A DNA stretch of 64,000 bases. Source: Candidatus Undinarchaeota archaeon. GTDB taxonomy: Archaea > SpSt-1190. A model generated the notes under the pieces. That model was not told where the DNA came from. It searched no databases and saw nothing but the letters and a program-made list of their open reading frames with translations. How positions within the stretch are numbered: the first letter of the stretch is position 1; each line of letters opens with the position of its first letter. Shown in pieces: positions 29,086 to 57,363 of this stretch. A program made the translations under genes and the position numbers. Location: contig CAYVAH010000001.1 in the NCBI GenBank assembly GCA_964449215.1, positions 32,865 through 96,864 of the forward strand, written 5' to 3'.

Positions 29086-30229
29086 GCCGAAGAAAGTCAA
29101 AAAGGAGGAAGAAAAGCCCGCGGAAGAGGCCCCAGAAGAAGAAGGCGGGGAACCGGCAGCAGAGGAAGGAGAAAGAACAATAGGAGATATTGTTGAGGAG
29201 GAGGGGCTTGTTTCCGAACCTGAAAGGGAGTCAATGCTCAAGCAGCAGGGGACACCTGAGCTCTCTGAAGTTCTGATGCGCATTGACAGAATTGACGGGA
29301 AGCTGGAGCTCTTCAAAGGGATGCTCGATTCCTTCAACGAAAGACTCATAGAACTCAATGAACGCCTCGGGGACACCCGCAGGATGGTCTTCGACAGGGA
29401 AAAATGGGCCTCAAAGCTCGAAACGGAGTTCGAGAAAGTGGCAGGCATTGTGAAGGAACTTGACCCGGAGAAAATCGTAATGAGGTTCGAGAAGTTCAAG
29501 ACAAGCATTGAAAAACAGAATGCAACCCTGGAAAAGCTCAACGACCTCCTGAAGAACCTATCGGAGCGGATGAAGATTGCGGAGGGGAAACTCGAGAACG
29601 TTAAGAGCCTCGAAAACGTGATGAAGGCCGGAAAGACCGTTGAGGAGAAATTGAAGAAGATTCAGGAAGCGAAGACATATACGGACAAAATATCCGCGAA
29701 GATAGAGGCGATGTTCCTCGAAACGAATGAAAGGGTCGCCATGATGAAGGAAAACCTTGATAAGATTGAAAAGCATGAGTCGATGCTGGGCGACCTGCTG
29801 AAGGAAATTGAATCACTGAAGTTCAAGATAGATGAAGAGCTCGTGAAAAAGAGGGAGGTTGAGGAACTTATTGAGTCCGCAAAAGACGTAATCATAGAAG
29901 AAATCGTTGGGATAAACCCAGTTGCTTTTGACAACCTTCGAAGGAGGGTCGCGATATTGGAGAACAAGGGAAAAAGCACCAGAGAGCTCGAAGAGGAGCT
30001 GAAGAAATACCAGACACTTATGGATCAGGTTGAAAGGGATTTCCAGATGGGGCGGATAAAGGACGAAGCCAGGAACGAGCTGAAGGCCAGCACGGAGAAA
30101 AAGATAGAAGAAATCCGGCTGGTCCTTGAGAGCAGAAAGGGTCCAAAAAAGGTTGAGGGGAAGAAAGCAAAGGGAAAGGAAACCAAGTTGAAGGAAAAAC
30201 TTCTGAGCATGGGAAAGAAATCTACTTGA
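29051..30229 (+). CDS. K/E-rich cytoplasmic coiled-coil protein (start uncertain: TTG/GTG at 29051-29066; first ATG at 29234)
   Basis: Long ORF with heptad-like K/E/L-rich sequence throughout and no TM. Overlaps the previous gene across an A-run (ggcaaaaaagaag). SD-like GGAGGTGG at 29053-29060. Confidence 0.55.
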   Translation: MEVELLAKKKTKPKKVKKEEEKPAEEAPEEEGGEPAAEEGERTIGDIVEEEGLVSEPERESMLKQQGTPELSEVLMRIDRIDGKLELFKGMLDSFNERLIELNERLGDTRRMVFDREKWASKLETEFEKVAGIVKELDPEKIVMRFEKFKTSIEKQNATLEKLNDLLKNLSERMKIAEGKLENVKSLENVMKAGKTVEEKLKKIQEAKTYTDKISAKIEAMFLETNERVAMMKENLDKIEKHESMLGDLLKEIESLKFKIDEELVKKREVEELIESAKDVIIEEIVGINPVAFDNLRRRVAILENKGKSTRELEEELKKYQTLMDQVERDFQMGRIKDEARNELKASTEKKIEEIRLVLESRKGPKKVEGKKAKGKETKLKEKLLSMGKKST

Positions 30230-33200
30230 AAACCCTCTTCAGTTCCTCGAAGGTCTCGCGGGATATCAGCCCCTCTTCATATTGGCTCTTCAGTGTTTGA
30301 AGAACGTCAGATCCCCCTTCTGCTTCCCTTTTCTTCTTCACTATTTCCTCGAGCTTCTTCATCGCCCTCCTCTGCTCCCTCCCTTTCAGTATCTTGAACT
30401 TGTTTATGGCTATCACAATCAGGAGAATCAGAGCAAATATGGAAACGGCAATCACATACCAGTTCGGTGGAACCTCCGGGAGCGTGACTGTCGGCAGATA
30501 CCTCGGTTTTGAAATCTCCAGCCGGTATTTTATCTCCTCGATGGTGTTCTCCACATCAGATATCGTCTTGATTGCATCAACAGTCTGGTCCTTCTCGAGG
30601 TAGGTTTCAGCCACATCGAGCATTTCCCTGGATTTCCTGAGGAGGGAAAGAATCTTGGTAACATCACCCCCCCTCGCAGCAACCTTACCCGCCTGGTCCT
30701 CCAGATCCATAAGCTCCTCCCGGAGGGAAGCAATCCTCGCCCGGAGAGCCTCCTCCTGTGTCTTAAACACTATAACCTTGTAGAACTCCGAAACCTCCAC
30801 TTCACGGGAAATTATACGCATCTTGGTCACGTAGGTTCGGGCCGTGGCGTCCTCAGGGATCGTGAACTTCACGACAAGGTATCCACTTGACCCGGGAGAG
30901 AGGGATGCCACCTCCCTGACAACCTCGAACCAGTCCTTGTCTATGTCCTCAAAGAAAACTGTTATGTCGGAAAGGCCAACATCCCCTGTGTTCTTCACCT
31001 CGATGGTGAGATAACCCACCGAACCGCGGTTTATTATCATCTCATCCGGGAAGACGTTGGTTATTGTGAGCTCCATCACAGCAGCCTCAACCGGTGTTAT
31101 AATCTCAGGGGGGACCTCCTCCGGCGCAGCAGCTTCCACCACCCTGAAACCCCTCGAAACCTCAAGCGGGGGGTACACTGTCGAGTAGTTCAGAAGGACG
31201 TGGAGCGAGTAGCCCCCCGCTGACTGGTTGGAGTATATGGAAAGATTTGCAGTTAACGTGCGGTTGCCCCTGGCAGGAACGAATGTCGGCCTGTCATGGA
31301 CATAGGCATAAGTTCGATTCTGTGAATCCTCAATCCAGTATGAGAGAAGAACATCCTGGTCAACATCCCCGTAGTTCTCGAGCAGTATGGTGAAATTCAG
31401 GTCCTCACCCTGTGGCACCTCTGGGTCTATGCTGATTATATCAACGTCATAGGGTCCGCCAAAACTGACGCGGAAAGCCTTGAGCTTCCTCACCTGCCTC
31501 CCCCCTTGCTCAACTATAAGCTCCGCCAGATAGTATCCGGTGGTCGTTGGGAGGCTGTGCTTCGTCTGGTAGAGCCTGCTATTGTTCGTGACGTTGAAAA
31601 GCGAAAGCGAGCTGTTCGTGAAATAAAGATTCTCGGCCGAGTCATACACGTTCAGCGTGACTTCGTCCGGTTCCACCATAGGACCATCAGTATAGACGAG
31701 AGCGTAAAAGTGTGCCTGTATCGGCTGGCTTGAGTACCACACATATCCTACATCAAACTCAACATTATATTCCTCCCTGACGGAGAAGGAATACGTGGTG
31801 CTGTGATTAACTGTCTTGTTCGCCACCGGGTCCCGGTGCGAGGCATTCACAGTTATGGTGTAGTTGCCCAAGGGAGCATCATCGGGAATTGAAAATGTTG
31901 GTATCGGCAGCACCGTTCCATCGGACTGGAGCTCGTCGTGATATCGCAGGTATCCGAGCGAGTCGTTGAGCTTTAGAGAAACATTTGCAGGTATGGGAAT
32001 CCCGGACTCATCAGTGGTGTTTATGTATATGGATGCCGTTTCTCCCGTGTAGTATGTCCGGAAACCCGTTCCCACACTCGTGTGGAGTATTGGATAAACA
32101 TACAAGGTCAGGTTCTGACGGGAATAAAGCCCAAGGTTGTCTCTCGTCTCAACCTGCAAGGTGTAGTAACCGAACTCGTTGCTGTTCCCCCAGGTCCCGG
32201 GGTATGTGAGCTCGTAGTAGTAAGTCTCATTTGATTGATTCACGAGGTTCATGTCAGATGCCTGCACCGAGCCCCGGGGAAGAAACACAACGAGTCTGGT
32301 GAAGCTCAACCCCTGCCCGGATTTATCAGTGATATTCGCATAAACCGTTATGTCTTCAAGCTCCTGCGTAATATTCTTTGACAGTGTGGCATTTATCTCG
32401 GCAAGCTCTCTTGGTATCATACTCACGTTCAAATATCTCCAGGAGGGCTGTGCGACGCCAGCACTCACATTGTATGTGGCATTATAATAGTCCCTCGCGA
32501 CTCCGGTGAGATTCCAGAGTATGACAAAGAGGTGCACGCCCTGCGCTGGAACGGTGAAGTTGGTCTCATTGGTGTATGTATAGTTGGCGCTTTCCGGGGA
32601 AACGGTGAAGTTCAGTTCCACGTTACCCGTGTTGTTGACCATAACGTCGCACATCTTCCCCTCATCGAAAGCTACCTCGGTTGTGCAGTTCTCCGGGTGG
32701 AGCTCCCAGGTCCGGGAAACGGGAACTGTAATATTCAGGTACACAAAATCGTAACCATCATCGGAGCTTGTGTAATTGGCAGTTCCGGTATAATTGCCGG
32801 GGGAATAGCCGGGGGAGACATTCACATTCGCAGTCACATCAATCACAGAGCCAACAGGAATGAAGTCTATCTCGGGATAAAACGTTATGTTGAAATCATC
32901 CAGCCCAAGCACCGTTACACTCACCCCATTCACCTGGTCATTACCGGTGTTCCTGACGGTGAAGCCACCGATATCCGTGCTCTGACCGTGTGGCGCCGAA
33001 CCGGCCACATACGCTTCGTCTATCTGAAACTCCTTGTTCGAAAGAACTTCCACAGTGATGTTCGTGGTGTTGTATGTCACCCCTATTCCGGGATTCGCCC
33101 AAGAAACATTGACAACAACAGTGTAGTTCCCGGGCGTGCTCCGCTTCACAGCAAGCTCAAATGTCCTGAAACAGAACCCACCCACCGGCACGTCACCGCA

Positions 33201-35903
33201 GTTATACCTGTTGCCAGAAACGTTCGTGAGCCAGTAGGCCTCCGGGAGCTCCAGGGTGATGTTTGTGTCGAGGGCCGGAGAAGACCCTATATTCGTCGTG
33301 TTCACAGAAACCGTGAAATTCTGAAATTTATACCACCTCATCCTGTCAGAGGTGAGGGCGGAGGGCGTGGCGTTCACGCTCATAAAAGTCTCTATTATGC
33401 TAACCTGGACAGGTATGGAATCCCAGACGCCATTCTCCGAGGACGCATTTAGAGTACCATCAAAGGTACCACGCTCATGGTCACTTGGCATATACACCCA
33501 GACCTCCACAGAAGCATTTTCACCCTGGAAAATCAAGGAAACATTTGAAGGGGTGAAATTGAAAGTCATGGTGGGTATTCCTGTGACGTTGAACGTCACA
33601 TTCTGCAACTCGAAGTTTCCTTCGGATAAGACGGTTATATTCCCCATATAGTTCCACTCGCCTGGAGCGGCAGTTATGGAAATGTTCTCCTCGGCAATCC
33701 TGAGTGAGGGATTCGGGTCCACGGAAATGTTGAACGTGGTGTTGTAGCTGTCGGTGGTGTTGTCGGAGTTCAACCAGTCCACTGTGGCATTCACAAGATA
33801 AAACCCTGGAGTTTCATTTTCGGGGACCCACACATCAAAAAACCTGATGGAAGATTGAAAGAGGTCTATCGTACCAAGCTGTTCGAAGCTCGTGTTCACC
33901 CACCAATTCCCGGGGAGATTCAGGGTAATGTTGGTCGCGTAGGCGGTGCCGTTCCCGAGGTTGGTCACATTCGCCACCATCGTGAAGTTCTGTCCTTCAG
34001 AAAGGGTCACGTTATCTATGGACTCCCTGCCGCCTGTGAAATTCAGACCGACAGTCACATCCGTCACATACGTCACTGAGGTAAAGGTGTCCTGCGCCGT
34101 CCCTGTGTTGCCAAGTCTCGTAGCATTACAGACAAGTGTGAACACACCATAGTATGAGGGGGACACGAATTCTATCAGGTATGTGCCGTTCCCATAGTCA
34201 GTTACATTTGGGTTCGCATCTGTGGAGTCATACACACAGCTTATATTCGCCCCGGGGATGTATGTGTCATTACGGTAGTTGGTAACCTCCATGGTCGCAT
34301 TTATGGTGCGATTAACGAACCCGTAGTCATTTGAAATATTGAGTGACGCAGTGTAGGTATCAAACACAAAAAAGCTGGCGGTGGTCGTGTTCAGGAGCAC
34401 GTTCTTCTGGTCCCAGGCATAAGCCGTGATATTCCACTGACCTGTCGAGTTCGACTCGTTCAGGATGAAATAATTTGTGTAGAGGTCGTCCCCTGCCTGC
34501 GAATCCCCATGACTCCCGTCGTCATAAAGGGTCAGCGACAGGTCGCCCCCCTCAGACACAATGGTCGCATTCACGAGGGTTATCAGCCCGGAATCCACGG
34601 TGGCATTAACAAAAACTGTTACATTCTCCCCGCGGTTATAGCTTGAGTGTTCCGTTGAAGCGTTCAGGAACACCTCCCATTTTTCCGAAAGAGTCTTTGA
34701 CGTTTCCTCCCTGAAAAGCAACCTGTTCCTGAGGTTCCTGACTTGGGCGTCAGTCGGAGATCCCTTGATCGCGGAAGGGCTGTTGAAATGAAGTGCTGTC
34801 ACCTCATATAGGGTCTCATCTGGCTGAACCGTCACATTGGAAAGTTCAATACCCCCCCTCCCCCAGCTGTTGTTCCTGTTGACGGAAGCATAGGGACCCG
34901 AATCCTCAACATTTATGATACCAACGTGGAAGTTCGCGAACTCCGCGGCAAACCAGAACCACGAGGCAGGCTCGGAGGCATTCCCGATTATTATGCTGTT
35001 CGTCCCTGCCCTTTTAACATCAAAGAGCAAAGCACCAGCAGGAGTGGAATTGCGGGTTATGTTATAGTCCGCCGTGTTCTTGTAAATTTGCTCCACCTTT
35101 ATCCACTGGCTCTGATTGTAGAATATGTAACGCTTCACAATTTCACCTTCTGTCTGGTTTGTGGAGTTCCATACAACTTCCTTCCCTCTTTGCTCCACCA
35201 CGAGCCTTGCAGGACCCTGATAGAGAACTGTCATGTTGTTGCGAAGGTCGAACGTAAAGTTGTGTGTGTCATTGGAATACTGCATATACTCAATGGGGTT
35301 CTCCCCCTCAGACGGAGGAGACCAGAACTCATTCTCAGCATAGTCCTTTATTCTATAGATGCCTGAAACGTTGGCGCCCCGGGAGGTGTCTATCCAGTAT
35401 TCAAGACCTTTTGTGGTTCCGGAATCCTCAATGGTCACGTTGACCTGCAGCTCCTCGCCATCCCAGCTGTACGGGATGACAGTGTAGTTGATGGCGGGCT
35501 TGCTGTCGGTGTCATAGTAGAGACAAAAGACCCTCAGCTCGTTGGCCGCGAGGGTACCGTTCATTATGAACGCCAGCGTTCCGTGAAAATTCATCGAGGC
35601 GTTGAACCCCTGACCCTCATCGAACTGGCTCGGCAGCTCGAACATGGCACTCCCGCTGGAGGGATCCTGCTCTATGAGGCGGAGTGAAGTGGCGTTGATA
35701 GTCCCGCTTCCCCCAGAAGCATTCAGCTCAGCAGTAAGGTTCAGCGGGAACTCTATTGGCCAGTCTTCGCGGGAATACTTGGAAGCATTTACTTCGATAC
35801 ACACACGGTAATCCCAGCTGGAATCCCACCACTCCAGCTTCGCAAAAGCCGGGAGAACCAAAAGAAGCAGCAGCAGGGCTACCCGAAACCTCACGGAATT
35901 CAA
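30222..35903 (-). CDS. Large surface (S-layer-like) glycoprotein, 1,893 aa, with N-terminal signal peptide, C-terminal coiled-coil stalk, TM anchor and short cytoplasmic tail (start codon TTG at 35903 or GTG at 35894)
   Basis: N-terminus (M)NSVRFRVALLLLLLVLPAFA is signal-peptide-like. Very high NxS/T density. Coiled-coil segment at aa ~1720-1810. TM is WYVIAVSIFALILLIVIAINKF. TATA-like GGCTTAAATTAAAAGCC at 35909-35925. Convergent with the giant-gene operon, with 3' ends overlapping by 8 nt. Confidence 0.75.
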   Translation of the reverse strand: MNSVRFRVALLLLLLVLPAFAKLEWWDSSWDYRVCIEVNASKYSREDWPIEFPLNLTAELNASGGSGTINATSLRLIEQDPSSGSAMFELPSQFDEGQGFNASMNFHGTLAFIMNGTLAANELRVFCLYYDTDSKPAINYTVIPYSWDGEELQVNVTIEDSGTTKGLEYWIDTSRGANVSGIYRIKDYAENEFWSPPSEGENPIEYMQYSNDTHNFTFDLRNNMTVLYQGPARLVVEQRGKEVVWNSTNQTEGEIVKRYIFYNQSQWIKVEQIYKNTADYNITRNSTPAGALLFDVKRAGTNSIIIGNASEPASWFWFAAEFANFHVGIINVEDSGPYASVNRNNSWGRGGIELSNVTVQPDETLYEVTALHFNSPSAIKGSPTDAQVRNLRNRLLFREETSKTLSEKWEVFLNASTEHSSYNRGENVTVFVNATVDSGLITLVNATIVSEGGDLSLTLYDDGSHGDSQAGDDLYTNYFILNESNSTGQWNITAYAWDQKNVLLNTTTASFFVFDTYTASLNISNDYGFVNRTINATMEVTNYRNDTYIPGANISCVYDSTDANPNVTDYGNGTYLIEFVSPSYYGVFTLVCNATRLGNTGTAQDTFTSVTYVTDVTVGLNFTGGRESIDNVTLSEGQNFTMVANVTNLGNGTAYATNITLNLPGNWWVNTSFEQLGTIDLFQSSIRFFDVWVPENETPGFYLVNATVDWLNSDNTTDSYNTTFNISVDPNPSLRIAEENISITAAPGEWNYMGNITVLSEGNFELQNVTFNVTGIPTMTFNFTPSNVSLIFQGENASVEVWVYMPSDHERGTFDGTLNASSENGVWDSIPVQVSIIETFMSVNATPSALTSDRMRWYKFQNFTVSVNTTNIGSSPALDTNITLELPEAYWLTNVSGNRYNCGDVPVGGFCFRTFELAVKRSTPGNYTVVVNVSWANPGIGVTYNTTNITVEVLSNKEFQIDEAYVAGSAPHGQSTDIGGFTVRNTGNDQVNGVSVTVLGLDDFNITFYPEIDFIPVGSVIDVTANVNVSPGYSPGNYTGTANYTSSDDGYDFVYLNITVPVSRTWELHPENCTTEVAFDEGKMCDVMVNNTGNVELNFTVSPESANYTYTNETNFTVPAQGVHLFVILWNLTGVARDYYNATYNVSAGVAQPSWRYLNVSMIPRELAEINATLSKNITQELEDITVYANITDKSGQGLSFTRLVVFLPRGSVQASDMNLVNQSNETYYYELTYPGTWGNSNEFGYYTLQVETRDNLGLYSRQNLTLYVYPILHTSVGTGFRTYYTGETASIYINTTDESGIPIPANVSLKLNDSLGYLRYHDELQSDGTVLPIPTFSIPDDAPLGNYTITVNASHRDPVANKTVNHSTTYSFSVREEYNVEFDVGYVWYSSQPIQAHFYALVYTDGPMVEPDEVTLNVYDSAENLYFTNSSLSLFNVTNNSRLYQTKHSLPTTTGYYLAELIVEQGGRQVRKLKAFRVSFGGPYDVDIISIDPEVPQGEDLNFTILLENYGDVDQDVLLSYWIEDSQNRTYAYVHDRPTFVPARGNRTLTANLSIYSNQSAGGYSLHVLLNYSTVYPPLEVSRGFRVVEAAAPEEVPPEIITPVEAAVMELTITNVFPDEMIINRGSVGYLTIEVKNTGDVGLSDITVFFEDIDKDWFEVVREVASLSPGSSGYLVVKFTIPEDATARTYVTKMRIISREVEVSEFYKVIVFKTQEEALRARIASLREELMDLEDQAGKVAARGGDVTKILSLLRKSREMLDVAETYLEKDQTVDAIKTISDVENTIEEIKYRLEISKPRYLPTVTLPEVPPNWYVIAVSIFALILLIVIAINKFKILKGREQRRAMKKLEEIVKKKREAEGGSDVLQTLKSQYEEGLISRETFEELKRVFK

Positions 35904-36192: not shown

Positions 36193-36621
36193 GTGCTTAA
36201 AGAATTTCTCACTCTGGTCCTCCTGTTAGCCGTTGTGGTATTTGTGGGGAGCGGGGAAGAACAATACTACAAGGCGGAGCTGCGGAAAGTCACAATATAC
36301 CCGCAGGTCGCCTATCTCACCCTCGAAACAAGGGATGGAAACCTTTCAATGACCGTGTCCCCATCGCAGGGTGTGGCAATAAGGGACGCCCTGAACGAGG
36401 CGAGCCACCCGAGACCCACCACTCATGACCTGGCCGCAGAACTGGCAAGACTTTCAGGGGTGAAAAAGCTTGTGGTTCACGACCTTGTGAACGGGACTTA
36501 CATTGCAAGCCTGCATCTTGGGGCGGGAGTGGTAGATATCCGACCGAGTGATGGGATTGTAGTGTGCATCCGAGATGGTTGCCCAATCTACGTGTCCCGT
36601 GAACTCATTGCCGGCGGCTAA
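36193..36621 (+). CDS. Bifunctional-nuclease (BFN/DUF151) domain protein with N-terminal TM segment (GTG start)
   Basis: Motifs GVAIRDALNE and RPTTHDLAAEL resemble the conserved core of the DUF151/BFN family. N-terminal hydrophobic segment LTLVLLLAVVVFVG. Confidence 0.5.
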   Translation: MLKEFLTLVLLLAVVVFVGSGEEQYYKAELRKVTIYPQVAYLTLETRDGNLSMTVSPSQGVAIRDALNEASHPRPTTHDLAAELARLSGVKKLVVHDLVNGTYIASLHLGAGVVDIRPSDGIVVCIRDGCPIYVSRELIAGG

Positions 36622-37153
36622 AAATGACAAGGCTGTAGAGCCGATACAAAAATGAATAGAGTGCTATTGCCGAAATAACAAAAAGCGTTTCGATACCCTT
36701 ACCAAAAAAGATGCCTGTGGCTATAACTAGTATTCTTAGTGGCCTTAGGGTTGTCTTTTCAACAAATCTTCCTCTAGCAAGTCCCTCCATGATAGCCCCG
36801 GAATAGCTGGAGAGGAGTGTGAGGAGAACTGTCATCATACCTATTAAAGGAGAGTACATAATTCCCATTCCCACAACTATTATGCTGTCACTTATACGGT
36901 CACACAATCTATCTACAGCAGACCCCACGGAAGAGACCATCCCGTATTTCCTCGCCACCGTCCCATCAATAACATCAAGCATCCCGGAAATCAACACAAA
37001 AATTGCTGAGAGGGTTGTGTGACTCATAAAAAGCAGTACTCCTGCAATTGCCATTGAAACAGCCCCCAAAACCGAGATTTTTATCGGGTCAATCTTCGGG
37101 AGGACCTTCCCCATCTTCGGCTCAAGAAATCTTTTCACAGTCAGCATATTCAC
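36605..37153 (-). CDS. CDP-alcohol phosphatidyltransferase family protein (archaeal phospholipid head-group synthase-like)
   Basis: Signature D-G-x2-A-R-x8-G-x3-D-x3-D present as DVIDGTVARKYGMVSSVGSAVDRLCDRISD. Multiple TM segments. Confidence 0.7.
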   Translation of the reverse strand: MNMLTVKRFLEPKMGKVLPKIDPIKISVLGAVSMAIAGVLLFMSHTTLSAIFVLISGMLDVIDGTVARKYGMVSSVGSAVDRLCDRISDSIIVVGMGIMYSPLIGMMTVLLTLLSSYSGAIMEGLARGRFVEKTTLRPLRILVIATGIFFGKGIETLFVISAIALYSFLYRLYSLVIFSRRQ

Positions 37154-49324: not shown

Positions 49325-50038
49325 GTGAAATTCACAAAGAAGCTCGGAAGGTCGGGGAAGGTCGCGGAGGTCACTGATGAACGGTCCCGCGCCTTTGACA
49401 TAGCATACTCCGGGGAGAAGGCATACCTGATAAAGGTCGTCCACAACATTGAGAGTGTCAACAGGGAGCAGGCGGAAACCATAAAGAAATGTGCCTCAGT
49501 CGTGGGTGCCGAACCCCTTTTTATAAGCGGGCACGGGAAAACCCCATTAAAGGAAAACGTCGTCTATAGGAGGCACGGAATTCCCGTTATGAAGGATAAG
49601 ACCTTCCTGAAGTTCATGAAAGGCGAAAGGACATTCTTGGCCGACCGCGGGGGCATCAAGGTCCCCATCAAGGGGCTCGGACATGCCATGAGGAAGGTTG
49701 GGATGAGCAGGTCAACACTTGCCAAGCTCGTTGGGGTAAGCGTGGAGATGGTGAGAAAATATGAAAAGGGCATGGCGCATCCGGGGGAGAAGGTGGCCGG
49801 ACGGCTGATAGACATTTTCGGGGATGGGATAGTCGAAAAACTCCATTATGAGCAGAAGGAAGTCAGGAAGGTGTATATAGGGAAGGCCCCTTTCGAAATG
49901 GCTGTGAAAAGAAAAAAGCCCATCCTGATAAGTTTCAAGTCCAGCCCGGAAAGGGTCAAGAACCTTGAAGCTGTCTCGGATGTGCTGGACGCCGAACCTG
50001 TGGTCACCAAGGACCTTGAAGGAATTGACCTGGAATAA
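49325..50038 (+). CDS. Putative archaeal transcriptional regulator with C-terminal XRE-type HTH (COG1395-like), GTG start
   Basis: HTH_XRE-like segment MSRSTLAKLVGVSVEMVRKYEKG in the second half. Overall layout resembles the conserved archaeal COG1395 family. Confidence 0.5.
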   Translation: MKFTKKLGRSGKVAEVTDERSRAFDIAYSGEKAYLIKVVHNIESVNREQAETIKKCASVVGAEPLFISGHGKTPLKENVVYRRHGIPVMKDKTFLKFMKGERTFLADRGGIKVPIKGLGHAMRKVGMSRSTLAKLVGVSVEMVRKYEKGMAHPGEKVAGRLIDIFGDGIVEKLHYEQKEVRKVYIGKAPFEMAVKRKKPILISFKSSPERVKNLEAVSDVLDAEPVVTKDLEGIDLE

Positions 50039-50048: not shown

Positions 50049-50094
50049 AACCGTTTTCCCATCTAAAGTGATAGGAATTCAATAGGTGATTAAA

Positions 50095-51720
50095 ATGGCA
50101 GAAGGAAATATCAGACAGCCGGTGGTAATACTGCCGGAAAATGCACAAAGGATACTCGGGCGGGATGCCCAGAGGATAAACATAATGGCAGCCAAGGCTG
50201 TTGCGGAAGTTATACGCAGCACCCTGGGACCGAAGGGAATGGACAAAATGCTGGTGGACAACCTCGGCGACGTTGTAATAACAAATGACGGGGTGACCAT
50301 ACTTGAGACAATGGACATTGAGCACCCTGCGGCCAAGATGATAGTCGAGGTGGCAAAGGCACAGGAAGACGAGGTGGGCGATGGAACGACCACAGCCACT
50401 GTGCTGGCCGGTGAGCTGCTCAAGAGAGCAGAGGACCTTCTGGACCAGGACATACACCCCGCTGTGATAGCCCATGGATACAAGCTGGCTGCCGAGAAGG
50501 CCATGGAAGTCGTGGACAAGATAAGTTTCGAAGTAACGCTGAACGATCTGGAACTCCTGAAGAAGATTGCAAAGACCAGTATGAATGGAAGGGGAACAGA
50601 GATGGGAATAGACTACCTCGCCAAGCTATCTGTTGAAGCCATAATGAAAATAGCTGATGAGGGAGAGATAGACGTTGAAAACATAAAGATTGAAAAGAAA
50701 GCTGGCGGGAGCATGGAGGACAGCGAACTCATAGACGGGATCGTGCTCGATAAGGAAAGGGTCCACAGCGGAATGCCGCGGGTTGTCGAAGACGCCAGGA
50801 TAGCCCTGCTGAACCTCGCCCTCGAAGTGAAGGAGCCGGAGACGGACGCGCAGATACAGATAACCTCTCCAACCCAGCTGGAAACCTTCCTCGAAAAGGA
50901 GGAGGAAATGATAAAGAAAATGGTCAACAAGCTCAAGGAAGCAGGAGCAACTGCTGTCTTCTGTCAGAAGGGCATTGACGACCTGGCACAGCATCTTCTC
51001 GCAAAGGAAGGTATATTCGCCGTGAGGCGAGTGAAGAAGAGCGACATGACAGCACTGGCCAGGGCAACAGGAGGCAAGATAGTGACAGATATAAGGGACA
51101 TAAGTGAGTCAGACCTCGGGTTTGCAAAGAAAGTTGAGGAGAAGAAGGTTGCAGGGGAATCGATGACCTTTGTCGAGGGCTGCAAGGATCCGAAGGCCGT
51201 TACAATACTCCTGCGCGGTGGAACGGAGCACGTAACTGACGAAGCGGAGCGCGCCCTGAAGGACGCCATAAAAGTGCTTGCCACTGCCCTGGAAGATGGC
51301 AAGGTCGTTGCCGGCGGTGGCGCAACAGAAATCAGCGTTGGGGCGGAGCTGCTGAAGATGGCCCCGAAGGTCGGGGGAAGGGAACAGCTGGCAATCGAGG
51401 CCTTCGCGAGGGCCATGGATGTCATCCCGAGAAGCCTCGCGGAGAACGCAGGACTGAATGCAATAGACCTCCTGGTAAAGGCAAAGAGTGACCATGGATC
51501 CGGAAAAATCAGGAATGGTATAGACGTCAACAGCGGAACTGTGAAGAACATGGCGAACCTTGGAGTCATAGAACCATCAAGAGTGAAGAAACAGGCGATA
51601 AAGAGTGCAAGTGAAGCCGCGACAATGATACTCAAAATAGATGACGTCATTGCCGCGAGCAAGCTTGACAAGGGAACAGGCGACAAGGAGAATATGGGTG
51701 ATATGGGCGGCGGCTTCTAG
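50095..51720 (+). CDS. ths: Thermosome subunit (group II chaperonin)
   Basis: N-terminus [19 protein letters not shown]...[10 protein letters not shown]...ITNDGVTIL...[10 protein letters not shown] and C-terminal GDMGGGF are hallmark group II chaperonin motifs. The ORF track started at GTG 50086; ATG 50095 is preferred. Confidence 0.95.
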
Positions 51721-51732
51721 CCGCGGCAAACC

Positions 51733-51743
51733 TTTTTTATTTT
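51733..51743 (+). terminator. Oligo-T tract (TTTTTTATTTT) just after thermosome stop; archaeal intrinsic terminator candidate
   Basis: T-run 13 nt downstream of the stop codon. Confidence 0.4.
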
Positions 51744-51759
51744 CATTTCCTTTCCTTAT

Positions 51760-52578
51760 GTGATCTCGGATTATCTCAAGGAAATGAGACTGACCCATTG
51801 GTATAAAGCCTTGATAGTTTTTTCAGGACCTCTTTTCGGTGGAGCCCTGCTTTCCTCAAGTCTCCTGAGGCTCATAATGAGCTTTTTTGCCTTTGGACTC
51901 GTGGCGAGCTCCATATATGTGATAAATGACCTCAAGGACGCTGAAAAGGACAGATTGCACCCAAAGAAGAAAGAACGACCGATAGCAAGCGGAAAAATCG
52001 ACGCAAAGAACGCAGTTATCTTCAGCAGTGCACTCCTCCTCTCTTCACTCTTACTGGCCTGGGCAGTGGATAGAACTGTCCTGTGGCTGGTTCTTTGTTA
52101 TTTTTTCCTCATGCTACTCTACACATTTTTCCTGAAGGAAATTGCTGTCATCGACGCCTTTGCGATAGCAGGGGGCTTTGTAATCAGGGCACTCGCAGGT
52201 TGCTTCGCCGCTGGGATCGAGGTGACCACATGGTTCTACCTGGTAATATTCTTCTTTGCGATATACCTGGCATTCTGCAAGAGACTGACAGAGCTGTCCC
52301 TCGCCGGGAAGGAACACAAAAACAGCCTGGCCGTCTATGAGCACCTGTCGGAAATCGGGATAGCAATCTCCGGCTCCGCAACCCTTTCAATGTATGCGAT
52401 ATACACGCTCGAAAAGAGCGGGCTGGTTATGTGGTCAGTCCCCCTCGCCTTCCTTGGGATGTTGCTGCACCTCAGGGAAACCTTTGCAGGGAAGGAAGTC
52501 CATGAAAGCCTGAAGAGCCCAGAACTCATACTGACCGGCCTTGCCTTTATCGTTATTGTTCTTCTAAGCCTTTATTAA
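51760..52578 (+). CDS. UbiA-family polyprenyl transferase, decaprenyl-phosphate phosphoribosyltransferase (DPPR synthase)-like (GTG start; alternative ATG at 51784)
   Basis: Motif VINDLKDAEKDRLHPKKKERPIASG matches the NDxxDxxxD...HPxKxxRPIAxG signature of the DPPR-synthase subgroup rather than DGGGP synthases (NKPNRPIPSG). ~8 TM segments. Confidence 0.7.
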   Translation: MISDYLKEMRLTHWYKALIVFSGPLFGGALLSSSLLRLIMSFFAFGLVASSIYVINDLKDAEKDRLHPKKKERPIASGKIDAKNAVIFSSALLLSSLLLAWAVDRTVLWLVLCYFFLMLLYTFFLKEIAVIDAFAIAGGFVIRALAGCFAAGIEVTTWFYLVIFFFAIYLAFCKRLTELSLAGKEHKNSLAVYEHLSEIGIAISGSATLSMYAIYTLEKSGLVMWSVPLAFLGMLLHLRETFAGKEVHESLKSPELILTGLAFIVIVLLSLY

Positions 52579-52648: not shown

Positions 52649-55615
52649 CTAAATCAGCTCTTCTTCCTTGTCCCTGCTCGAGTAAATTCCATACGCAAGA
52701 ACAGCAAGGGCGAGTATCACACGGAAGTCCAGATTCAGCTTGACCGTGGACTTCAACAAAGCATACCGGGAATAATACATGGAGGTTATGTAGTCTCCGT
52801 GCTCATATGCATCCCTGGCTTTCTCTATATAGCCCGAAGCAAGCCTTGAACTGAGCGGGTTCAGGCTCTCAACCTGCGCAAGGAGCTCCTTGGCCTGCCC
52901 CCTGTGCTTCAATGAACGCGAGAGAAAGCTCTCAAGCCCTGCGCTCCTCACCAGGCTCATATACTTTTTCACTGCAGTCTCATCATCACCCAAGTCATGC
53001 AGTCTCTTGACCTCCTCGAGCTCTGGCAAGCGAATGCACTTTAATGGTGGAAGCCTGAAATTCTCCAGCACCTCAGAAACAACATTCGCTTCGACACACC
53101 CATATGTTGTGTAGTCAATTTTATCAGACAGGTGCTCATAGGCTTCTCCGTAGCTGGAGTACCCAAAAAGGAGGGAAGAATTCAGGGAACCATTCTGGAG
53201 TCTGAGTGGTTCACCCGGGGGTTCCAACTCGAAGTTTGATCTGAGTGCCACCCGCTTCTCCTCAAGCGGGTCAAGGGCAACCCCCACCATAGCAGGCATA
53301 TCACCGGAAACATACCTGGCAGGAATCTCAAACGACAGCTCCGCAGTTGAGTTTATAAGATTCTTCACAGTCAGTTCATCCCCGGAAGACAGGACCTCAA
53401 CAGATGGACCGAAGAAACTCACATTATGCTCGCCACAAGGAACCTCCACAAGCACTTCGGAACCGTCATAGAAGAAGGGCGCTGTTGAATTCATCCTCCT
53501 GCCACTGAATGGGTGTTCTATTGGGACAAGAACAGTCTCAAACTCACAGCCCGAAATGAAAACACACCTGGCCTCAGCTTCAAGACCATCAACAGAGTAG
53601 CTACAGTGGTGGTATGCCGGGTCCAGCAAGGACTCGTAACTTACATTGAAAATCACAATGGGCCCAACGTCCTTCAAGTTCAACCGGACAGTGTCACCGG
53701 AAAAACTCACAGAGGACAGGTAGGAGGTATCACCAACAAAGTTCTGGGAGTCTATATGCCTTGGGGGGAAGGGAAGATCCAGCACCGAGCTCGCCGAATC
53801 AAGCTGAACCCCCCAGCTGTTGTTCACGAGAACCGCGCAGTGCACATCAAAGGGCCTGCCAAGGACCGGTTTTTCAGGGTAGCACAAAACCCTGGAAGGA
53901 AGGTTTGAACTGAAGTCTTTCAGCAATTCGTCATACTTTTCCCTCATTTCCTCAAGGTATGGCTCTCTGGAAAGGTAATAGATAATGCTGTCAACATAAC
54001 CGGAAAATGCTGAAATCTTTCTGTCCTCAACCTTCACATCAACCCCCCTGTCCCTAAGAAATTGGGATAGACTCAGCAGCTCCGCCTTAATCTTCATGGC
54101 GCGATCCCTGTATTTCTCAAAAAACCTTTCCTCCACGTGATCCTTGAATGCCCTGACACCCGCAAGAACCTCGCTGGCACCTTCCCCACCGAGATTCCCA
54201 GAAAGACCGACCTTCCGCTGAAGAACCCGCAACTCATCTTTGAACTCCATAAGTTCAGAAACATCAAGATAAGGTTCAATCCTTTCCAGGAGTTCCAAGG
54301 TGAAGTTCAACTCGGATTCCGCCAGCTCCAGACTGAGCCTGTCGGCCTCATCTTGAAGCTGGTTTTCCTCAAGATATTCAATTCTCGCATCCAGGAATGC
54401 CTGGGATGTTAGGAGAAGCCTCTGTGGCAGTTCCCCGTCATACTCGCACGGCCGCCCGTATGACCTGCAAAGGGCTTCCATTGTCTCAACCTGCCCGGTG
54501 AGGTATGACCAGGCAGATGCCACCAGTCCATCCATGTAGGATCCCTCAACCAGCACCCTTTCGTACCCCAGAAACTTCTCGCCTGAACTTTTCGAAACCC
54601 GAGCGGCCTCCATCGCCCTGAAGAGCTTTTCATACGCCTCCTTCACTCCTGAAAGTGTCGGCACATCCCAGCTCGACGCCACCAACTCACCGGATCCCTG
54701 AAGCAAGGAGAGTGCCAGCCTGACTGATGAGTTTGAAAGGATTGAGTTAAGGGCCTCCGCCTGCGAAACAACCAGCGACTCCTGATCCAATTTTTTCACA
54801 GCTTCCCTTTCCCTGGAACCGAGAAACTCTGATACAGCAAGCAAGTAATCTTTCAAGTCCCGGACCCATAAAAGTCTTCTGCGGAACTCAGACATATCAG
54901 GTCTCAACAGTGCATCTTCCAGCTGACCTCTTGTGTAAAAACCCTCAGGTGTGCAGGGGGAAGTCACACCAGGAAAGTAAACAGCCAGGAGGTATCTGGG
55001 AATCGAAACGGTACCATTAGAAGTTTCTATTGAGCATGAAGGCTCAAGAGGCCTGGGAAGAATTGTCGGGGAAGACTCCAAGGGGTCCATGCCTTCCACC
55101 CTCATACGCAGATCCATGTAGGTGACCCCATTTGGGAGGGCTACCCTCCCCGAAAACTCCGAAAGATCCTCTTCTTCATCCAGCAGCTCCATAAGGAGTT
55201 CGAGGTCATTTTGCATGAACTTCCCCTGAGCTGTGTCCAGCTTATAGGCAGTTCCAACAAGACGCTCTATGCCGGACCTGAGACCCCTGCCGAAGAAACT
55301 GAGGACCATGTTTTTTATGAAGGGAACCTTCTTCTTCATAGAAAGGGAGTCCTCCTGAACCTCCCTGGCAAGCACAACTGCCTCACTCCGGAGTTTGCGG
55401 AGCTCGGCGACATCCTGCTGGAGCGAATCATAGTAAAACGCCGCCCTCCCATCAATTCCAAGTTCCCCGGCACTTGGGAGGTACGGGACCTCGGGAAGGG
55501 AAGCGAACTGTGAAGCATACTCATATGCCATGTCGCTGTCCCAGAAAAGTTGGTCCACGAGCGTTCCAGTGTAGGCAAATACAGCCAGGAACAGGAAAAT
55601 GCTAACCTTTTTCAC
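52649..55615 (-). CDS. Large extracellular protein (988 aa) with N-terminal signal peptide and C-terminal TM anchor
   Basis: N-terminus MKKVSIFLFLAVFAYTGTL. C-terminal hydrophobic ILALAVLAYGIYS followed by charged tail. Several sequons. No family recognised. Confidence 0.6.
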   Translation of the reverse strand: MKKVSIFLFLAVFAYTGTLVDQLFWDSDMAYEYASQFASLPEVPYLPSAGELGIDGRAAFYYDSLQQDVAELRKLRSEAVVLAREVQEDSLSMKKKVPFIKNMVLSFFGRGLRSGIERLVGTAYKLDTAQGKFMQNDLELLMELLDEEEDLSEFSGRVALPNGVTYMDLRMRVEGMDPLESSPTILPRPLEPSCSIETSNGTVSIPRYLLAVYFPGVTSPCTPEGFYTRGQLEDALLRPDMSEFRRRLLWVRDLKDYLLAVSEFLGSREREAVKKLDQESLVVSQAEALNSILSNSSVRLALSLLQGSGELVASSWDVPTLSGVKEAYEKLFRAMEAARVSKSSGEKFLGYERVLVEGSYMDGLVASAWSYLTGQVETMEALCRSYGRPCEYDGELPQRLLLTSQAFLDARIEYLEENQLQDEADRLSLELAESELNFTLELLERIEPYLDVSELMEFKDELRVLQRKVGLSGNLGGEGASEVLAGVRAFKDHVEERFFEKYRDRAMKIKAELLSLSQFLRDRGVDVKVEDRKISAFSGYVDSIIYYLSREPYLEEMREKYDELLKDFSSNLPSRVLCYPEKPVLGRPFDVHCAVLVNNSWGVQLDSASSVLDLPFPPRHIDSQNFVGDTSYLSSVSFSGDTVRLNLKDVGPIVIFNVSYESLLDPAYHHCSYSVDGLEAEARCVFISGCEFETVLVPIEHPFSGRRMNSTAPFFYDGSEVLVEVPCGEHNVSFFGPSVEVLSSGDELTVKNLINSTAELSFEIPARYVSGDMPAMVGVALDPLEEKRVALRSNFELEPPGEPLRLQNGSLNSSLLFGYSSYGEAYEHLSDKIDYTTYGCVEANVVSEVLENFRLPPLKCIRLPELEEVKRLHDLGDDETAVKKYMSLVRSAGLESFLSRSLKHRGQAKELLAQVESLNPLSSRLASGYIEKARDAYEHGDYITSMYYSRYALLKSTVKLNLDFRVILALAVLAYGIYSSRDKEEELI

Positions 55616-56684
55616 GCTCCCACCCCCTGCGACCCCACCAGATAAGAAGCACTGCCAGAGGTAACAACATGAGATAATTTACACCAAGCTCTCTCCTTAC
55701 AGGAGTCTTTTCCACCCAAAAATTTTCCCCCTTCAAAGGAAGGGGCCTGGAGTGAAAGCTTATATTGAGTTCCGGAAGCTTTTCAACAACCCTGGGGTGT
55801 CCATCCCCAGAAACCAGAAGAAGCGGCAATTTTTCCTCTCCTTTGGAAAATATGAGGGTTTCTTCATCTATGCTATCCAAGACATAGCCGGAAAAGCTGA
55901 GGGGGCAGTCCCTCTCAAATTCGAGAAGAGCATCATAAAGTGCAAAGAACTGGGGATCCTCAACGGAAGCCATTCTCATCAGCTCGTCCCTGTAGTCCAG
56001 AACAACTTCGTGACAAAGCGGGTATCCCTCAAGCTTCCCGGCCAGAAGCTCAAGAGCCTTCCTGCCACTTATCTTCCCTTTCATGAGAGCCTCCCCAATG
56101 GAACTGTCCCGCTCATAGACTCTGGAAGGGAAGTCCGGCACCGACCAGCTGGAAACCGCCACAAGCGACTGTGGGCGGGATTTCTCCAGGAGACCCAACA
56201 AGGTCCGCAGCGAGTTTTTACCATCACAGACATCCACCAGATAATCGTCCCAGCCATACTCATAGTATATCCTCGCCGCGGATTCAATGGAATCACAGGA
56301 ATAATTCGATGAAATTGCCGTCCCAATTGCGGCTTCCATCGCTCTCTTCGTTTCCTCATACCCGAGAGCCTCGGGAGAAAGCGAGTCAGAAACCATTCTG
56401 GACAGGAACTCCGAGCTGACCGCCCCACCGCTGTTCTTGAAAAACAGGGAATTAATGAAAAATTCTGTGGCTTTCTCAAGGGAGCGAAGGGGTTTTCCAG
56501 GGCATACTGACTTGAAAAGACCATAACTCAACCGGTCATACAAATCCGGATATGTCAACGCCGCAACCCTTGGGTCGCCGGGGGGGTATGCCCTGTGCTC
56601 CTCCTGAAAAATCACAGCATAGGGCGAGTCGCAGGCAAGAACAGAAGTTAGCACAAGAACAAAGGCGATGAACGGTTTATGCAT
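55602..56684 (-). CDS. Extracellular protein (360 aa) with signal peptide and C-terminal TM anchor
   Basis: N-terminus MHKPFIAFVLVLTSVLAC. C-terminal LMLLPLAVLLIWWGRRGWEREKG. Overlaps the downstream gene by 14 nt (operon). Confidence 0.55.
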   Translation of the reverse strand: MHKPFIAFVLVLTSVLACDSPYAVIFQEEHRAYPPGDPRVAALTYPDLYDRLSYGLFKSVCPGKPLRSLEKATEFFINSLFFKNSGGAVSSEFLSRMVSDSLSPEALGYEETKRAMEAAIGTAISSNYSCDSIESAARIYYEYGWDDYLVDVCDGKNSLRTLLGLLEKSRPQSLVAVSSWSVPDFPSRVYERDSSIGEALMKGKISGRKALELLAGKLEGYPLCHEVVLDYRDELMRMASVEDPQFFALYDALLEFERDCPLSFSGYVLDSIDEETLIFSKGEEKLPLLLVSGDGHPRVVEKLPELNISFHSRPLPLKGENFWVEKTPVRRELGVNYLMLLPLAVLLIWWGRRGWEREKG

Positions 56685-57094
56685 ACCGTAGATACTACTA
56701 CGCCGTAGGTTTTAAAATATTGATGTCGGACCTCTGCGGCCAAGCAGGACCTCCCTGTCATGAGTGGGGAAAAGATGAGAGTATTTCCCCTCTGCAGAAT
56801 GGTCATATTCAGGAACTCATCAAGGCTCACATTCACCTGAACACATCTACCGTCCTGCCAGTTACCATATGTGAAATTCCATCTCTCTTTGAAGTTCTCC
56901 ACCTCCCCATCCACAACCGCCCTCCTGAAGTCATACTCAAAGTTTCTCGCCATGTAGAAAGCCTCATCCGCATCCATCAGCACCCCTTGATTTTTCAGCT
57001 CAGATGAAACAAGCGTGCCATAGATAGCATATAGATTCACGAGAGTGGATGCGAGAAGGAAGAACCATGTTATGGCAAACACTCCGCGACGCAT
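56648..57094 (-). CDS. Putative type IV pilin-like protein (class III signal peptide-like N-terminus MRRG/VFAITWFFLLASTLV)
   Basis: Short charged leader ending in Gly, followed by a ~22-aa hydrophobic segment. Paralogous N-terminus to the upstream 97-aa ORF. Overlaps neighbours in the operon. Confidence 0.4.
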   Translation of the reverse strand: MRRGVFAITWFFLLASTLVNLYAIYGTLVSSELKNQGVLMDADEAFYMARNFEYDFRRAVVDGEVENFKERWNFTYGNWQDGRCVQVNVSLDEFLNMTILQRGNTLIFSPLMTGRSCLAAEVRHQYFKTYGVVVSTVCINRSSPLFLC

Positions 57095-57363
57095 ATTCTG
57101 TGCTCACCTCCACCAAAAACTCTGTTGGTGCAGTAACGGAACCTGTAAGGGCATTTGTGGAACTCCTCCCCGTCCACCCAGATAGCAAAACTTCCCGCAG
57201 GGAGTTCCTGAGGTGAATGCCCGTACATAAGCATCTGGGCGACGTCCTGTGCATATACCTCTGTCTCCCTGAGAACCGGAACAGGCTCTGATTCCATAAC
57301 ATAGAACAGGTAAGGTAGGAGAAATATCACCAGCAGAATCTCTATTGAAAAGAAACCCCTCAC
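57070..57363 (-). CDS. Putative type IV pilin-like protein (MRG/FFSIEILLVIFLLPYLF)
   Basis: Leader MRG, then F+1 and E+4 followed by a hydrophobic stretch, reminiscent of prepilin/archaellin N-termini. First gene of the minus-strand operon. Confidence 0.4.
   Translation of the reverse strand: MRGFFSIEILLVIFLLPYLFYVMESEPVPVLRETEVYAQDVAQMLMYGHSPQELPAGSFAIWVDGEEFHKCPYRFRYCTNRVFGGGEHRICVAECLP

Follow-up and report, generated by a model that had tools for sequence, protein, structure and literature searches.

The gene analyzed here lies at positions 51760..52578 (+) of a 64,000-nt stretch of archaeal DNA (contig CAYVAH010000001.1, positions 32,865 to 96,864, assembly GCA_964449215.1, deposited as Candidatus Undinarchaeota archaeon); the whole stretch, at its full length, is referred to as the window. 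Judged by its sequence, the encoded UbiA-superfamily membrane protein belongs, in a broad sense, to the branch of decaprenyl-phosphate and polyprenyl-phosphate phosphoribosyltransferases (DPPRS and PPPRS) that includes Rv3806c of Mycobacterium tuberculosis, and it agreed with that branch in every catalytic feature that could be tested. Within this known enzyme family the protein, here assigned to an Altiarchaeota archaeon, is divergent and Altiarchaeota-specific; it does not represent a new kind of system or mechanism. Its function is probably the synthesis of a polyprenyl- or dolichyl-phosphate ribose donor from 5-phosphoribosyl 1-pyrophosphate (PRPP) by a nine-helix enzyme. The evidence falls short of strict functional equivalence to Rv3806c, since the protein scored below the curated profile cut-offs of the family and lacks an Arg-Tyr pair in transmembrane helix 8 (TM8).

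Profile, sequence, and fold comparisons

The locus held exactly one open reading frame (ORF), of 272 aa, with a GTG start and with the stop codon inside the end coordinate. Its product matched the Pfam family UbiA (PF01040) at 106.1 bits, compared with a gathering threshold of 34.2 (E = 2.3e-30), an assignment far beyond chance. The top NCBIfam matches were the DPPRS models NF008977, NF008978, and NF008976, at 173.4, 162.2, and 122.8 bits, respectively, and the model for HAD-UbiA fusions gave 160 bits. Models for digeranylgeranylglyceryl phosphate (DGGGP) synthase, heme O synthase, UbiA, and MenA gave 19 to 53 bits, against cut-offs of approximately 180 to 440. The individual values were 53, 44, and 38 bits for the DGGGP synthase models NF009523, NF009521, and NF009522 (cut-offs 269, 296, and 353), 49 bits for the heme O synthase model TIGR01473 (cut-off 210), 39 bits for TIGR01474 (cut-off 275), and 20 bits for the MenA-type model (cut-off 346). 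In a sequence search of the PDB, Rv3806c (8j8j) was matched with an E value of 1.6e-28, compared with 9e-6 for the DGGGP synthase of Methanocaldococcus jannaschii. The target and Rv3806c were 32% identical, which falls within the range of 31 to 34% among the characterized DPPRS/PPPRS members themselves (PMC11127046). An AlphaFold model built from a 49-sequence alignment (pLDDT 95.4) contained nine long helices of transmembrane type, and its best fold match was 8j8j_A (E = 3.7e-11, TM-score 0.87/0.82, rmsd 3.0), followed by AfUbiA (TM-score 0.76); DGGGP synthase gave 0.64 to 0.72.

These comparisons bear on the possibility that the protein is a conventional prenyltransferase, either a DGGGP synthase or an enzyme of the quinone or heme type. 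The Pfam match and the prenyltransferase-type names of public orthologues would fit such a role, as would the identity to a fragment of the M. jannaschii DGGGP synthase, at 24% for the target and a little less, 18%, for Rv3806c. Furthermore, no separate Altiarchaeota DGGGP synthase was found in the literature searched, and the window and related loci contained no second UbiA-family gene. The DPPRS models, however, scored three times higher than the prenyltransferase models, and the fold of Rv3806c was clearly the better match. Identity to Escherichia coli CyoE, UbiA, and MenA was 17 to 19%.

Active-site residues

The ligand contacts of Rv3806c have been defined by cryo-electron microscopy and mutagenesis (Gao et al., PMC10994848). 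They include Asn73, Asp77, and Gln135 for Mg2+ and ribose; a pyrophosphate cluster of Arg22, Lys87, Arg90, Lys143, and Tyr138; Lys28, Tyr70, and Tyr157 for ribose 5-phosphate; and Lys28, Tyr157, and Lys191 for decaprenyl phosphate (PMC10994848). Conservation was assessed by aligning the target and Rv3806c with 28 orthologues from Altiarchaeota and 91 further homologues, and a direct alignment was used to compare the motifs with those of four outgroups, namely, E. coli UbiA, MenA, and CyoE and the DGGGP synthase of M. jannaschii. Ten of the 12 Rv3806c ligand residues were identical in the target and in every Altiarchaeota orthologue that covered the position: R10, K16, Y53, N56, D60, K70, R73, Y121, K126, and K174, corresponding to R22, K28, Y70, N73, D77, K87, R90, Y138, K143, and K191, respectively. 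Tyr157 of Rv3806c is replaced in the target by Phe140, and Phe is the majority state of the family at this position.

The conserved residues are distributed over four segments of the gene, all on the plus strand. In TM1 (51787..51807), Arg10 and Lys16 correspond to Rv3806c Arg22, a ligand of the PRPP beta-phosphate, and Lys28, a ligand of both ribose 5-phosphate and the lipid phosphate (PMC10994848); both were invariant in the covering sequences (28 of 28 Altiarchaeota orthologues and 88 of 88 other homologues). The second segment (51916..51993) is the family-invariant motif 1 with its DPPRS extension, Y53-x-x-N56-D57-x-x-D60-x-x-x-D64-x-x-H67-P68-x-K70-x-x-R73-P74-I-A-x-G78, in which residue 77 is Ser in the target (P74-I-A-S-G78) and which is predicted to provide ligands for Mg2+ (N56 and D60), ribose 5-phosphate (Y53), and pyrophosphate (K70 and R73). 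The TM4-TM5 segment (52111..52188) contains, by alignment, M118 (Gln135), Y121 (Tyr138), K126 (Lys143), F140 (Tyr157), and R143. The fourth segment (52279..52293) is K174-R175-L-T-E178, a DPPRS-type loop at the site of the second Asp-rich motif, in which K174 corresponds to the lipid-phosphate ligand Lys191 of Rv3806c; the K, R, and E of this KRxxE loop are invariant or nearly so in the family, and the Rv3806c version is KRYAE.

An earlier reading of the window from sequence only had singled out the peptide VINDLKDAEKDRLHPKKKERPIASG and had taken the HPxKxxRPIAxG pattern as characteristic of DPPR synthases. The peptide is present as residues 54 to 78 (51919..51993), and the pattern proved to be a sound marker, since it was found in Rv3806c and in 91 of 91 other homologues and was absent from all four outgroups. 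The outgroups also lacked the TM1 Arg/Lys pair, the Tyr before motif 1, HPxK, RPIA, and the TM5 Arg, and the Lys/Arg cluster specific for PRPP was complete in the target. The region of the second Asp-rich motif reads DRDDD in E. coli UbiA and KDFEDMEGD in the M. jannaschii DGGGP synthase, compared with KRLTE in the target. Two-metal binding of a prenyl diphosphate depends on this second motif, and its absence from the target makes a conventional prenyltransferase role, including that of a DGGGP synthase, unlikely. The assignment made in the sequence-only reading, to the DPPR-synthase subtype and not to DGGGP synthase, UbiA, or MenA, was thus upheld by the scores against profiles, the predicted fold, the residues of the active site, and the lack of the second Asp-rich motif.

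Proposed reaction

We infer the donor, the acceptor lipid, the product, the downstream steps, and the final glycoconjugate as follows. The enzyme would reside in the inner membrane and, by analogy with Rv3806c, would bind PRPP-Mg2+ from the cytoplasmic face, with Asn56 and Asp60 holding the metal, Arg10, Lys70, Arg73, Lys126, and Tyr121 holding the pyrophosphate, and Lys16 and Tyr53 holding the ribose 5-phosphate. An isoprenoid phosphate, most likely dolichyl or polyprenyl phosphate, would be held by Lys16, Phe140, and Lys174, and its phosphate would attack C1 of the ribose with inversion, so that pyrophosphate would leave and a lipid-phosphate-linked beta-D-ribofuranose 5-phosphate would be formed. 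This product would next be dephosphorylated and flipped, perhaps with an MprF-flippase-like LPG_synthase_TM protein as the flippase. From it, an extracytoplasmic transferase would move the pentofuranose onto a glycan, a glycolipid, or a protein beyond the cytoplasmic membrane. The sequence-only reading had proposed a polyprenyl-phosphate-pentose donor carrying ribose or an arabinose-like sugar. The donor class is a reasonable proposal given the DPPRS-type placement, with ribose as the default pentose; no support was obtained for an arabinose-type product.

Distribution and genomic context in Altiarchaeota

A protein identical to the target exists in public data, and approximately 28 further 90%-identity clusters, several of them labeled Candidatus Altiarchaeota, shared 51 to 90% identity with it; beyond these clusters, identity fell abruptly to 41% or less. 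In an exhaustive HMMER search of 1.84 billion representatives, three Altiarchaeota-type clusters scored 220 to 420 bits, and the next relative scored 162 bits. A neighbor-joining tree of 86 sequences, with E. coli UbiA, MenA, and CyoE and the M. jannaschii DGGGP synthase fragment as outgroups, placed the Altiarchaeota proteins in a monophyletic clade (approximately 80% bootstrap) inside the DPPRS-like family and apart from a clade of methanogen and Thermococcus proteins.

A gap of 39 nt separates the gene from the thermosome subunit gene that precedes it on the same strand (50086..51720, +; PF00118, 601.9 bits), in agreement with the neighborhood described in the sequence-only reading, and this adjacency is conserved: the same-strand succession of thermosome and UbiA genes was found in every Altiarchaeota locus examined, including the most divergent one (L092), in which the other neighbors had changed. 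In five distinct Altiarchaeota genomes the gene order was fixed as membrane protein, phenylalanyl-tRNA synthetase (PheRS) beta subunit, PheRS alpha subunit, helix-turn-helix (HTH)/PDDEXK protein, thermosome, and UbiA, followed by a convergent gene cluster (products of approximately 950 to 990, 360, 150, and 95 aa), a 526-aa protein, and DUF373; a histone gene was called between the last two in L001 and L002. In view of this fixed synteny and of at least 29 clusters at 51 to 100% identity, the UbiA gene is a core, vertically inherited gene and not part of a variable glycan island.

In one divergent lineage (L090/L091), the stop codon of the UbiA orthologue lies within an 8-nt overlap (ATGCGTAA) with an LPG_synthase_TM gene, which indicates operonic coupling of the two genes. 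PF03706 (LPG_synthase_TM) covers the transmembrane region of MprF, including its flippase domain, and a role of the protein as a flippase for a lipid-linked sugar is plausible. In the same locus (8979..11699), a 303-aa soluble protein without a Pfam match is encoded between thermosome and UbiA, and a GT2 gene lies approximately 8 kb upstream.

Divergence of the Altiarchaeota clade

Several observations weigh against the proposed function. The target scored below the curated equivalog cut-offs of all three DPPRS models (234 for NF008977, 207 for NF008978, and 474 for NF008976), and all Altiarchaeota-clade proteins tested gave 161 to 176 bits, below the cut-offs of 234 and 207, whereas the homologues from Methanolobus, Methanobacterium, Thermococcus, and bacteria passed the curated cut-offs with 247 to 344 bits. 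Identity in TM8-CL4-TM9 (TM8, cytoplasmic loop 4, and TM9) was 19% between the clade and the rest of the family, compared with 34% within the rest, and the near-invariant Arg-Tyr pair at the cytoplasmic end of TM8 is replaced in the target by L236-H237. Gln135 of Rv3806c, which contacts the ribose O3, corresponds to Met118, as in 22 of the 29 clade members; this difference is not diagnostic, since the position varies across the family (N in 42 sequences, S in 14, Q in 12, and M in 10, with T also found). The deep nodes of the neighbor-joining tree were unresolved, the split between outgroup and ingroup being recovered in only 35 to 40% of bootstraps because distances are saturated at 17 to 24% identity; the branching order was therefore not relied upon, and the placement rests on profile scores, motifs, and fold. 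The phylogenetic check suggested with the sequence-only reading thus located the clade within the DPPRS-like family and left the deep nodes unresolved. No biochemical evidence for any archaeal DPPRS-type member was found in the literature searched. Finally, no phosphatase, epimerase, flippase, or GT-C gene was detected in the 64-kb window or in the loci of the five closest genomes.

Partner genes (GT-C, DprE1, DprE2, HAD, PHP, LPG_synthase_TM, DUF362, GT2, and Wzx) were sought in two ways, by tblastn in the window and six Altiarchaeota-related loci (approximately 170 kb, partly redundant) and with iterated hidden Markov models (HMMs) in 80 genome loci, including four from Altiarchaeota; tblastn gave no match, and the HMMs gave none in those four loci. 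The DprE1/DprE2 or GT-C genes for which the sequence-only reading had suggested a search were not found in the window or the related Altiarchaeota loci (approximately 170 kb), and DUF362 was likewise missing from the window and the five closest Altiarchaeota loci. The absence of partners is weak evidence, because 48 of the 80 loci across the family also lacked detectable partners within 10 kb by iterated HMMs and because loci rather than whole genomes were covered. An arabinose-specific reading based on DprE1/DprE2 was rejected; these genes stand beside the nearest bacterial homologues and were not near any archaeal member examined. In L001 (14779..17104), two extra genes near the convergent cluster encode a PF01663 protein (Phosphodiest, alkaline phosphatase superfamily) and a weak Polysacc_synt (Wzx-like) match; neither is present in the window.

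Compared segment by segment, the divergence falls mainly in one part of the protein. The DPPRS profile match ended at approximately model position 220 to 245 of 297 in the target and most clade members, before the Altiarchaeota-specific C-terminal region (TM8-CL4-TM9; 52420..52575, +), which contains L236-H237 and E246. In the PRPP-binding segments of TM1-TM5, identity between the clade and the rest was as high as within the rest (37 versus 40%, 57 versus 56%, and 32 versus 33%). L236 was present in 27 of 29 and H237 in 29 of 29 clade members, compared with R in 48 of 52 and Y in 52 of 52 sequences from the rest of the family, and the L-H pair was absent from 147 other representatives examined. 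Further clade-specific replacements of near-invariant residues were Pro by E246, Trp by F263, and Asn by A17, the last beside the catalytic Lys. In Rv3806c, TM6 and TM8 touch the decaprenyl tail, and the cleft between TM1 and TM9 is the lipid entrance (PMC10994848). Because TM8-TM9 is remodeled and these helices handle the lipid in Rv3806c, the pattern suggests that the donor chemistry was retained and that the lipid-binding side or the trimer interface was altered relative to canonical members.

Alternative functions

One alternative keeps the PRPP chemistry but makes the acceptor a two-chain ether-lipid phosphate, either archaetidic acid (DGGGP) or geranylgeranylglyceryl phosphate (GGGP), which would yield a phosphoribosyl head group directly, without CDP-archaeol. 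Conservation of the ligands for PRPP and for the lipid phosphate together with remodeling of TM8/TM9 in the clade (residue roles from PMC10994848) would suit such an acceptor, and so would a core, syntenic, housekeeping-like gene beside the thermosome and outside a glycan island, in organisms whose membranes are dominated by unusual glycosyl archaeols, including pentose-containing ones (PMC7242380; PMC4460559). The reported Altiarchaeota lipids, however, are glycosidic (hexose-pentose archaeol and diglycosyl archaeol) and not phospho-pentose lipids, none of the family members is known to act on diether or diacyl lipid phosphates, and a donor built on a carrier lipid would better explain why the orthologue in L090 shares an operon with a gene for a flippase-like protein; we therefore regard this acceptor as quite unlikely.

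We assign a similarly low probability to a new function, in which the diphosphate-binding scaffold would serve another activated donor or acceptor or a role outside glycan synthesis. The isolation of the clade (220 to 420 bits inside it versus 162 for the next relative), the scores below the curated cut-offs, the loss of the R-Y pair, the change of Asn to Ala at position 17 beside the catalytic Lys, and the lack of canonical partner genes in the loci of most genomes would fit such a change, but the phosphoribose-specific contacts K16 and Y53, which are absent from prenyltransferases, are invariant, the N-terminal bundle is as similar to the family as family members are to each other, and the linkage to LPG_synthase_TM is shared with canonical clusters. 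With its second Asp-rich motif replaced by KRLTE, the protein is highly unlikely to be a conventional prenyltransferase of any type. Synthesis of a carrier-linked ribose donor is the function that we retain.

Relation to characterized and predicted systems

The target resembles Rv3806c (PDB 8J8J/8J8K) in its nine-helix UbiA-like fold, its Mg2+ ligands, pyrophosphate-binding Lys/Arg residues, ribose 5-phosphate contacts, and lipid-phosphate lysines, and its KRxxE loop, and it differs in being approximately 30 residues shorter, in the change of Gln135 to Met, and in the diverged TM8-CL4-TM9. The partners of Rv3806c, namely, the phosphatase Rv3807c, DprE1/DprE2, and the GT-C arabinosyltransferases (PMC11127046), were not found near the target, which in place of decaprenyl phosphate would naturally use a dolichyl or polyprenyl phosphate of the archaeal cell as its carrier. 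Bacterial three-component pentofuranose systems, such as that of Citrobacter youngae with its PPPRS-HAD fusion ORF15, a MATE flippase, and a GT136 GT-C enzyme, and the PPPRS of pilin arabinosylation in Pseudomonas aeruginosa (Kelly et al. 2024, PMC11127046), share with the target the enzyme branch and the predicted reaction between PRPP and polyprenyl phosphate. The flippase on which such systems depend has a parallel in the LPG_synthase_TM gene that overlaps the orthologue in Altiarchaeota L090, whereas their fused HAD domain, MATE flippase, adjacent GT-C gene, and location in a variable glycan locus distinguish them from the target, which lies beside housekeeping genes. The DGGGP synthase of M. 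jannaschii (6M31/7BPU) and the UbiA homologues of A. fulgidus and A. pernix belong to the same superfamily, with nine transmembrane helices and a first motif NDxxDxxxD, but they possess the second Asp-rich motif, lack HPxK, the TM1 Arg/Lys pair, and KRxxE, and gave 17 to 24% identity and lower fold scores.

The nearest bacterial homologues were encoded in operons of the order DprE2-like/UbiA/DprE1-like or GT-C/DprE1/DprE2/HAD/UbiA/LPG_synthase_TM. Among archaea, the proteins of Methanolobus bombayensis, Methanobacterium sp. UBA176, Thermococcus sp. JdFR-02, and Methanomethylovorans were 33 to 38% identical to the target and shared all active-site residues with it; unlike the target, they passed the DPPRS cut-off (247 to 272 bits), kept the R-Y pair, and formed a separate neighbor-joining clade. 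The DPPRS-like genes of Methanobacterium sp. UBA176 and Methanolobus were accompanied by genes for GT-C (PMT_2), LPG_synthase_TM, DUF362, and a PHP phosphatase (found in Methanolobus by tblastn only), with GT2 and a Wzx-like protein also present at the Methanolobus locus, and the Thermococcus sp. JdFR-02 locus contained GT-C (PMT_2), LPG_synthase_TM, and DUF362. From their gene content, these clusters look like an archaeal counterpart of the bacterial pentofuranose systems. They occupy positions 8338..13511 of L014 (UBA176), 1841..6661 of L019 (JdFR-02), and 4048..12535 of L023 (the cultured Methanolobus bombayensis DSM 7082). DUF362 was found beside DPPRS-like genes in 10 of the 80 loci, bacteria included.

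Gene boundaries and neighboring genes

An alternative ATG start of the UbiA gene lies at Met9 (51784), and part of the orthologues are annotated from the equivalent position (263 aa). Orthologues keep residues upstream of Met9 (…DYLKEMR…), which favors the GTG start; the first eight residues of the target are less certain, and Arg10 and Lys16 are retained whichever start is used. The spacer between thermosome and UbiA (51721..51759, +; …ccttttttattttcatttcctttcctta-t/GTG) is 39 nt long and T-rich, and it may contain a terminator, a promoter, or both. Upstream of the thermosome gene, a 237-aa HTH_3 protein is encoded at 49325..50038 (+); its orthologues also have a PDDEXK_19 nuclease-like domain, and the gene was kept between PheRS and thermosome in L001, L002, L006, L007, and L090/L091, but not in L092.

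Downstream, the UbiA gene converges on a four-gene minus-strand cluster (52649..57363) without a match in the profile libraries and with orthologues in L001, L002, L006, L007, and L090. Its 90- to 97-aa protein begins M(R/K)G-FFSIE(I/L)LL, a type IV pilin-like signal with Glu at +5, its protein of approximately 150 aa begins MRRG-VFA(I/L)TWF, its protein of approximately 360 aa has a lipobox-like …AC(D/G)SPY sequence, and the fourth protein is 950 to 1,035 aa long. No Pfam or NCBIfam match supported the pilin idea for the four proteins, even at E ≤ 1. Pilins of Pseudomonas aeruginosa are arabinosylated via a DPPRS pathway (PMC11127046), and a parallel between that system and the pilin-like convergent cluster is speculative.

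Envelope proteins and a lipid gene in the window

Two large ORFs of the window, of 9,446 and 1,893 aa, contained 480 and 102 N-X-S/T sequons, respectively, approximately 3.5 times the number expected from their composition, whereas the cytoplasmic proteins of the window had 0 to 2 each. Heavy glycosylation of the envelope proteins, as stated in the sequence-only reading, is plausible from these counts. That reading had also proposed the lipid-linked donor as a source of unusual sugars for these proteins, a link that is conjectural. The 9,446-aa product is encoded by a single ORF at 47..28387 (+), with 5.1 sequons per 100 aa versus 1.5 expected and one hydrophobic segment near residue 9023. Its N-terminal 4,700 aa had no Pfam match, its C-terminal half contained Ig-like, MG2, NPCBM_assoc, and Big_7 domains, and a HerA/DUF87-type P-loop ATPase domain (PF01935, E = 1.6e-9) was located approximately 300 to 500 residues before the C terminus; it is unusual for a giant protein of surface type, rich in sequons, to be fused to a HerA-like ATPase. 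The 1,893-aa ORF (30222..35903, -) encodes NPCBM_assoc and MG2 domains and N- and C-terminal hydrophobic segments, with 5.4 sequons per 100 aa, and it converges on the giant ORF; two ORFs of 233 and 392 aa without a Pfam match lie between them (28384..30229, +). A 182-aa CDP-alcohol phosphatidyltransferase (PF01066), presumably an enzyme for archaeal lipid polar head groups, is encoded at 36605..37153 (-).

Implications

PRPP-derived lipid-linked pentofuranose donors are established in mycobacteria, where the pathway is an antituberculosis drug target, and more recently in many gram-negative O-antigen and pilin systems. The literature searched contained no account of a DPPRS-type member from Archaea. 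The target, together with the clusters of GT-C, flippase-like, and DUF362 genes in methanogens and Thermococcus, indicates, at the level of gene content, that the pathway exists in Archaea. The value of the finding lies in this extension of PRPP-derived lipid-linked pentose donors to Archaea and in a testable idea of where the pentose of the Altiarchaeota glycolipid comes from, the kind of enzyme itself being well established in bacteria. The placement also corrects misleading orthologue labels: names differ by annotation pipeline, from "decaprenyl-phosphate phosphoribosyltransferase" to "4-hydroxybenzoate polyprenyltransferase" and the generic "UbiA prenyltransferase family protein," of which the last two misdirect.

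Altiarchaeota have a double membrane of glycosyl archaeols, hexose-pentose archaeol is among the most abundant archaeal lipids attributed to them (PMC7242380; PMC4460559), and their hami are thought to be glycosylated (PMC4460559). The enzyme is a concrete candidate source for the pentose of hexose-pentose archaeol and possibly for surface glycoconjugates as well. A bolder and rather doubtful proposal is that the Altiarchaeota subfamily is the entry enzyme of an undescribed archaeal lipid-linked pentofuranose pathway, which would supply the pentose of hexose-pentose archaeol and possibly decorate surface or pilin-like proteins. If so, the remodeled TM8-TM9 would have adapted to a carrier of archaeal type or to a lipid acceptor with two chains, and the subfamily would provide the first functional assignment of an archaeal DPPRS-type enzyme and a genetic handle on an unexplained glycolipid.

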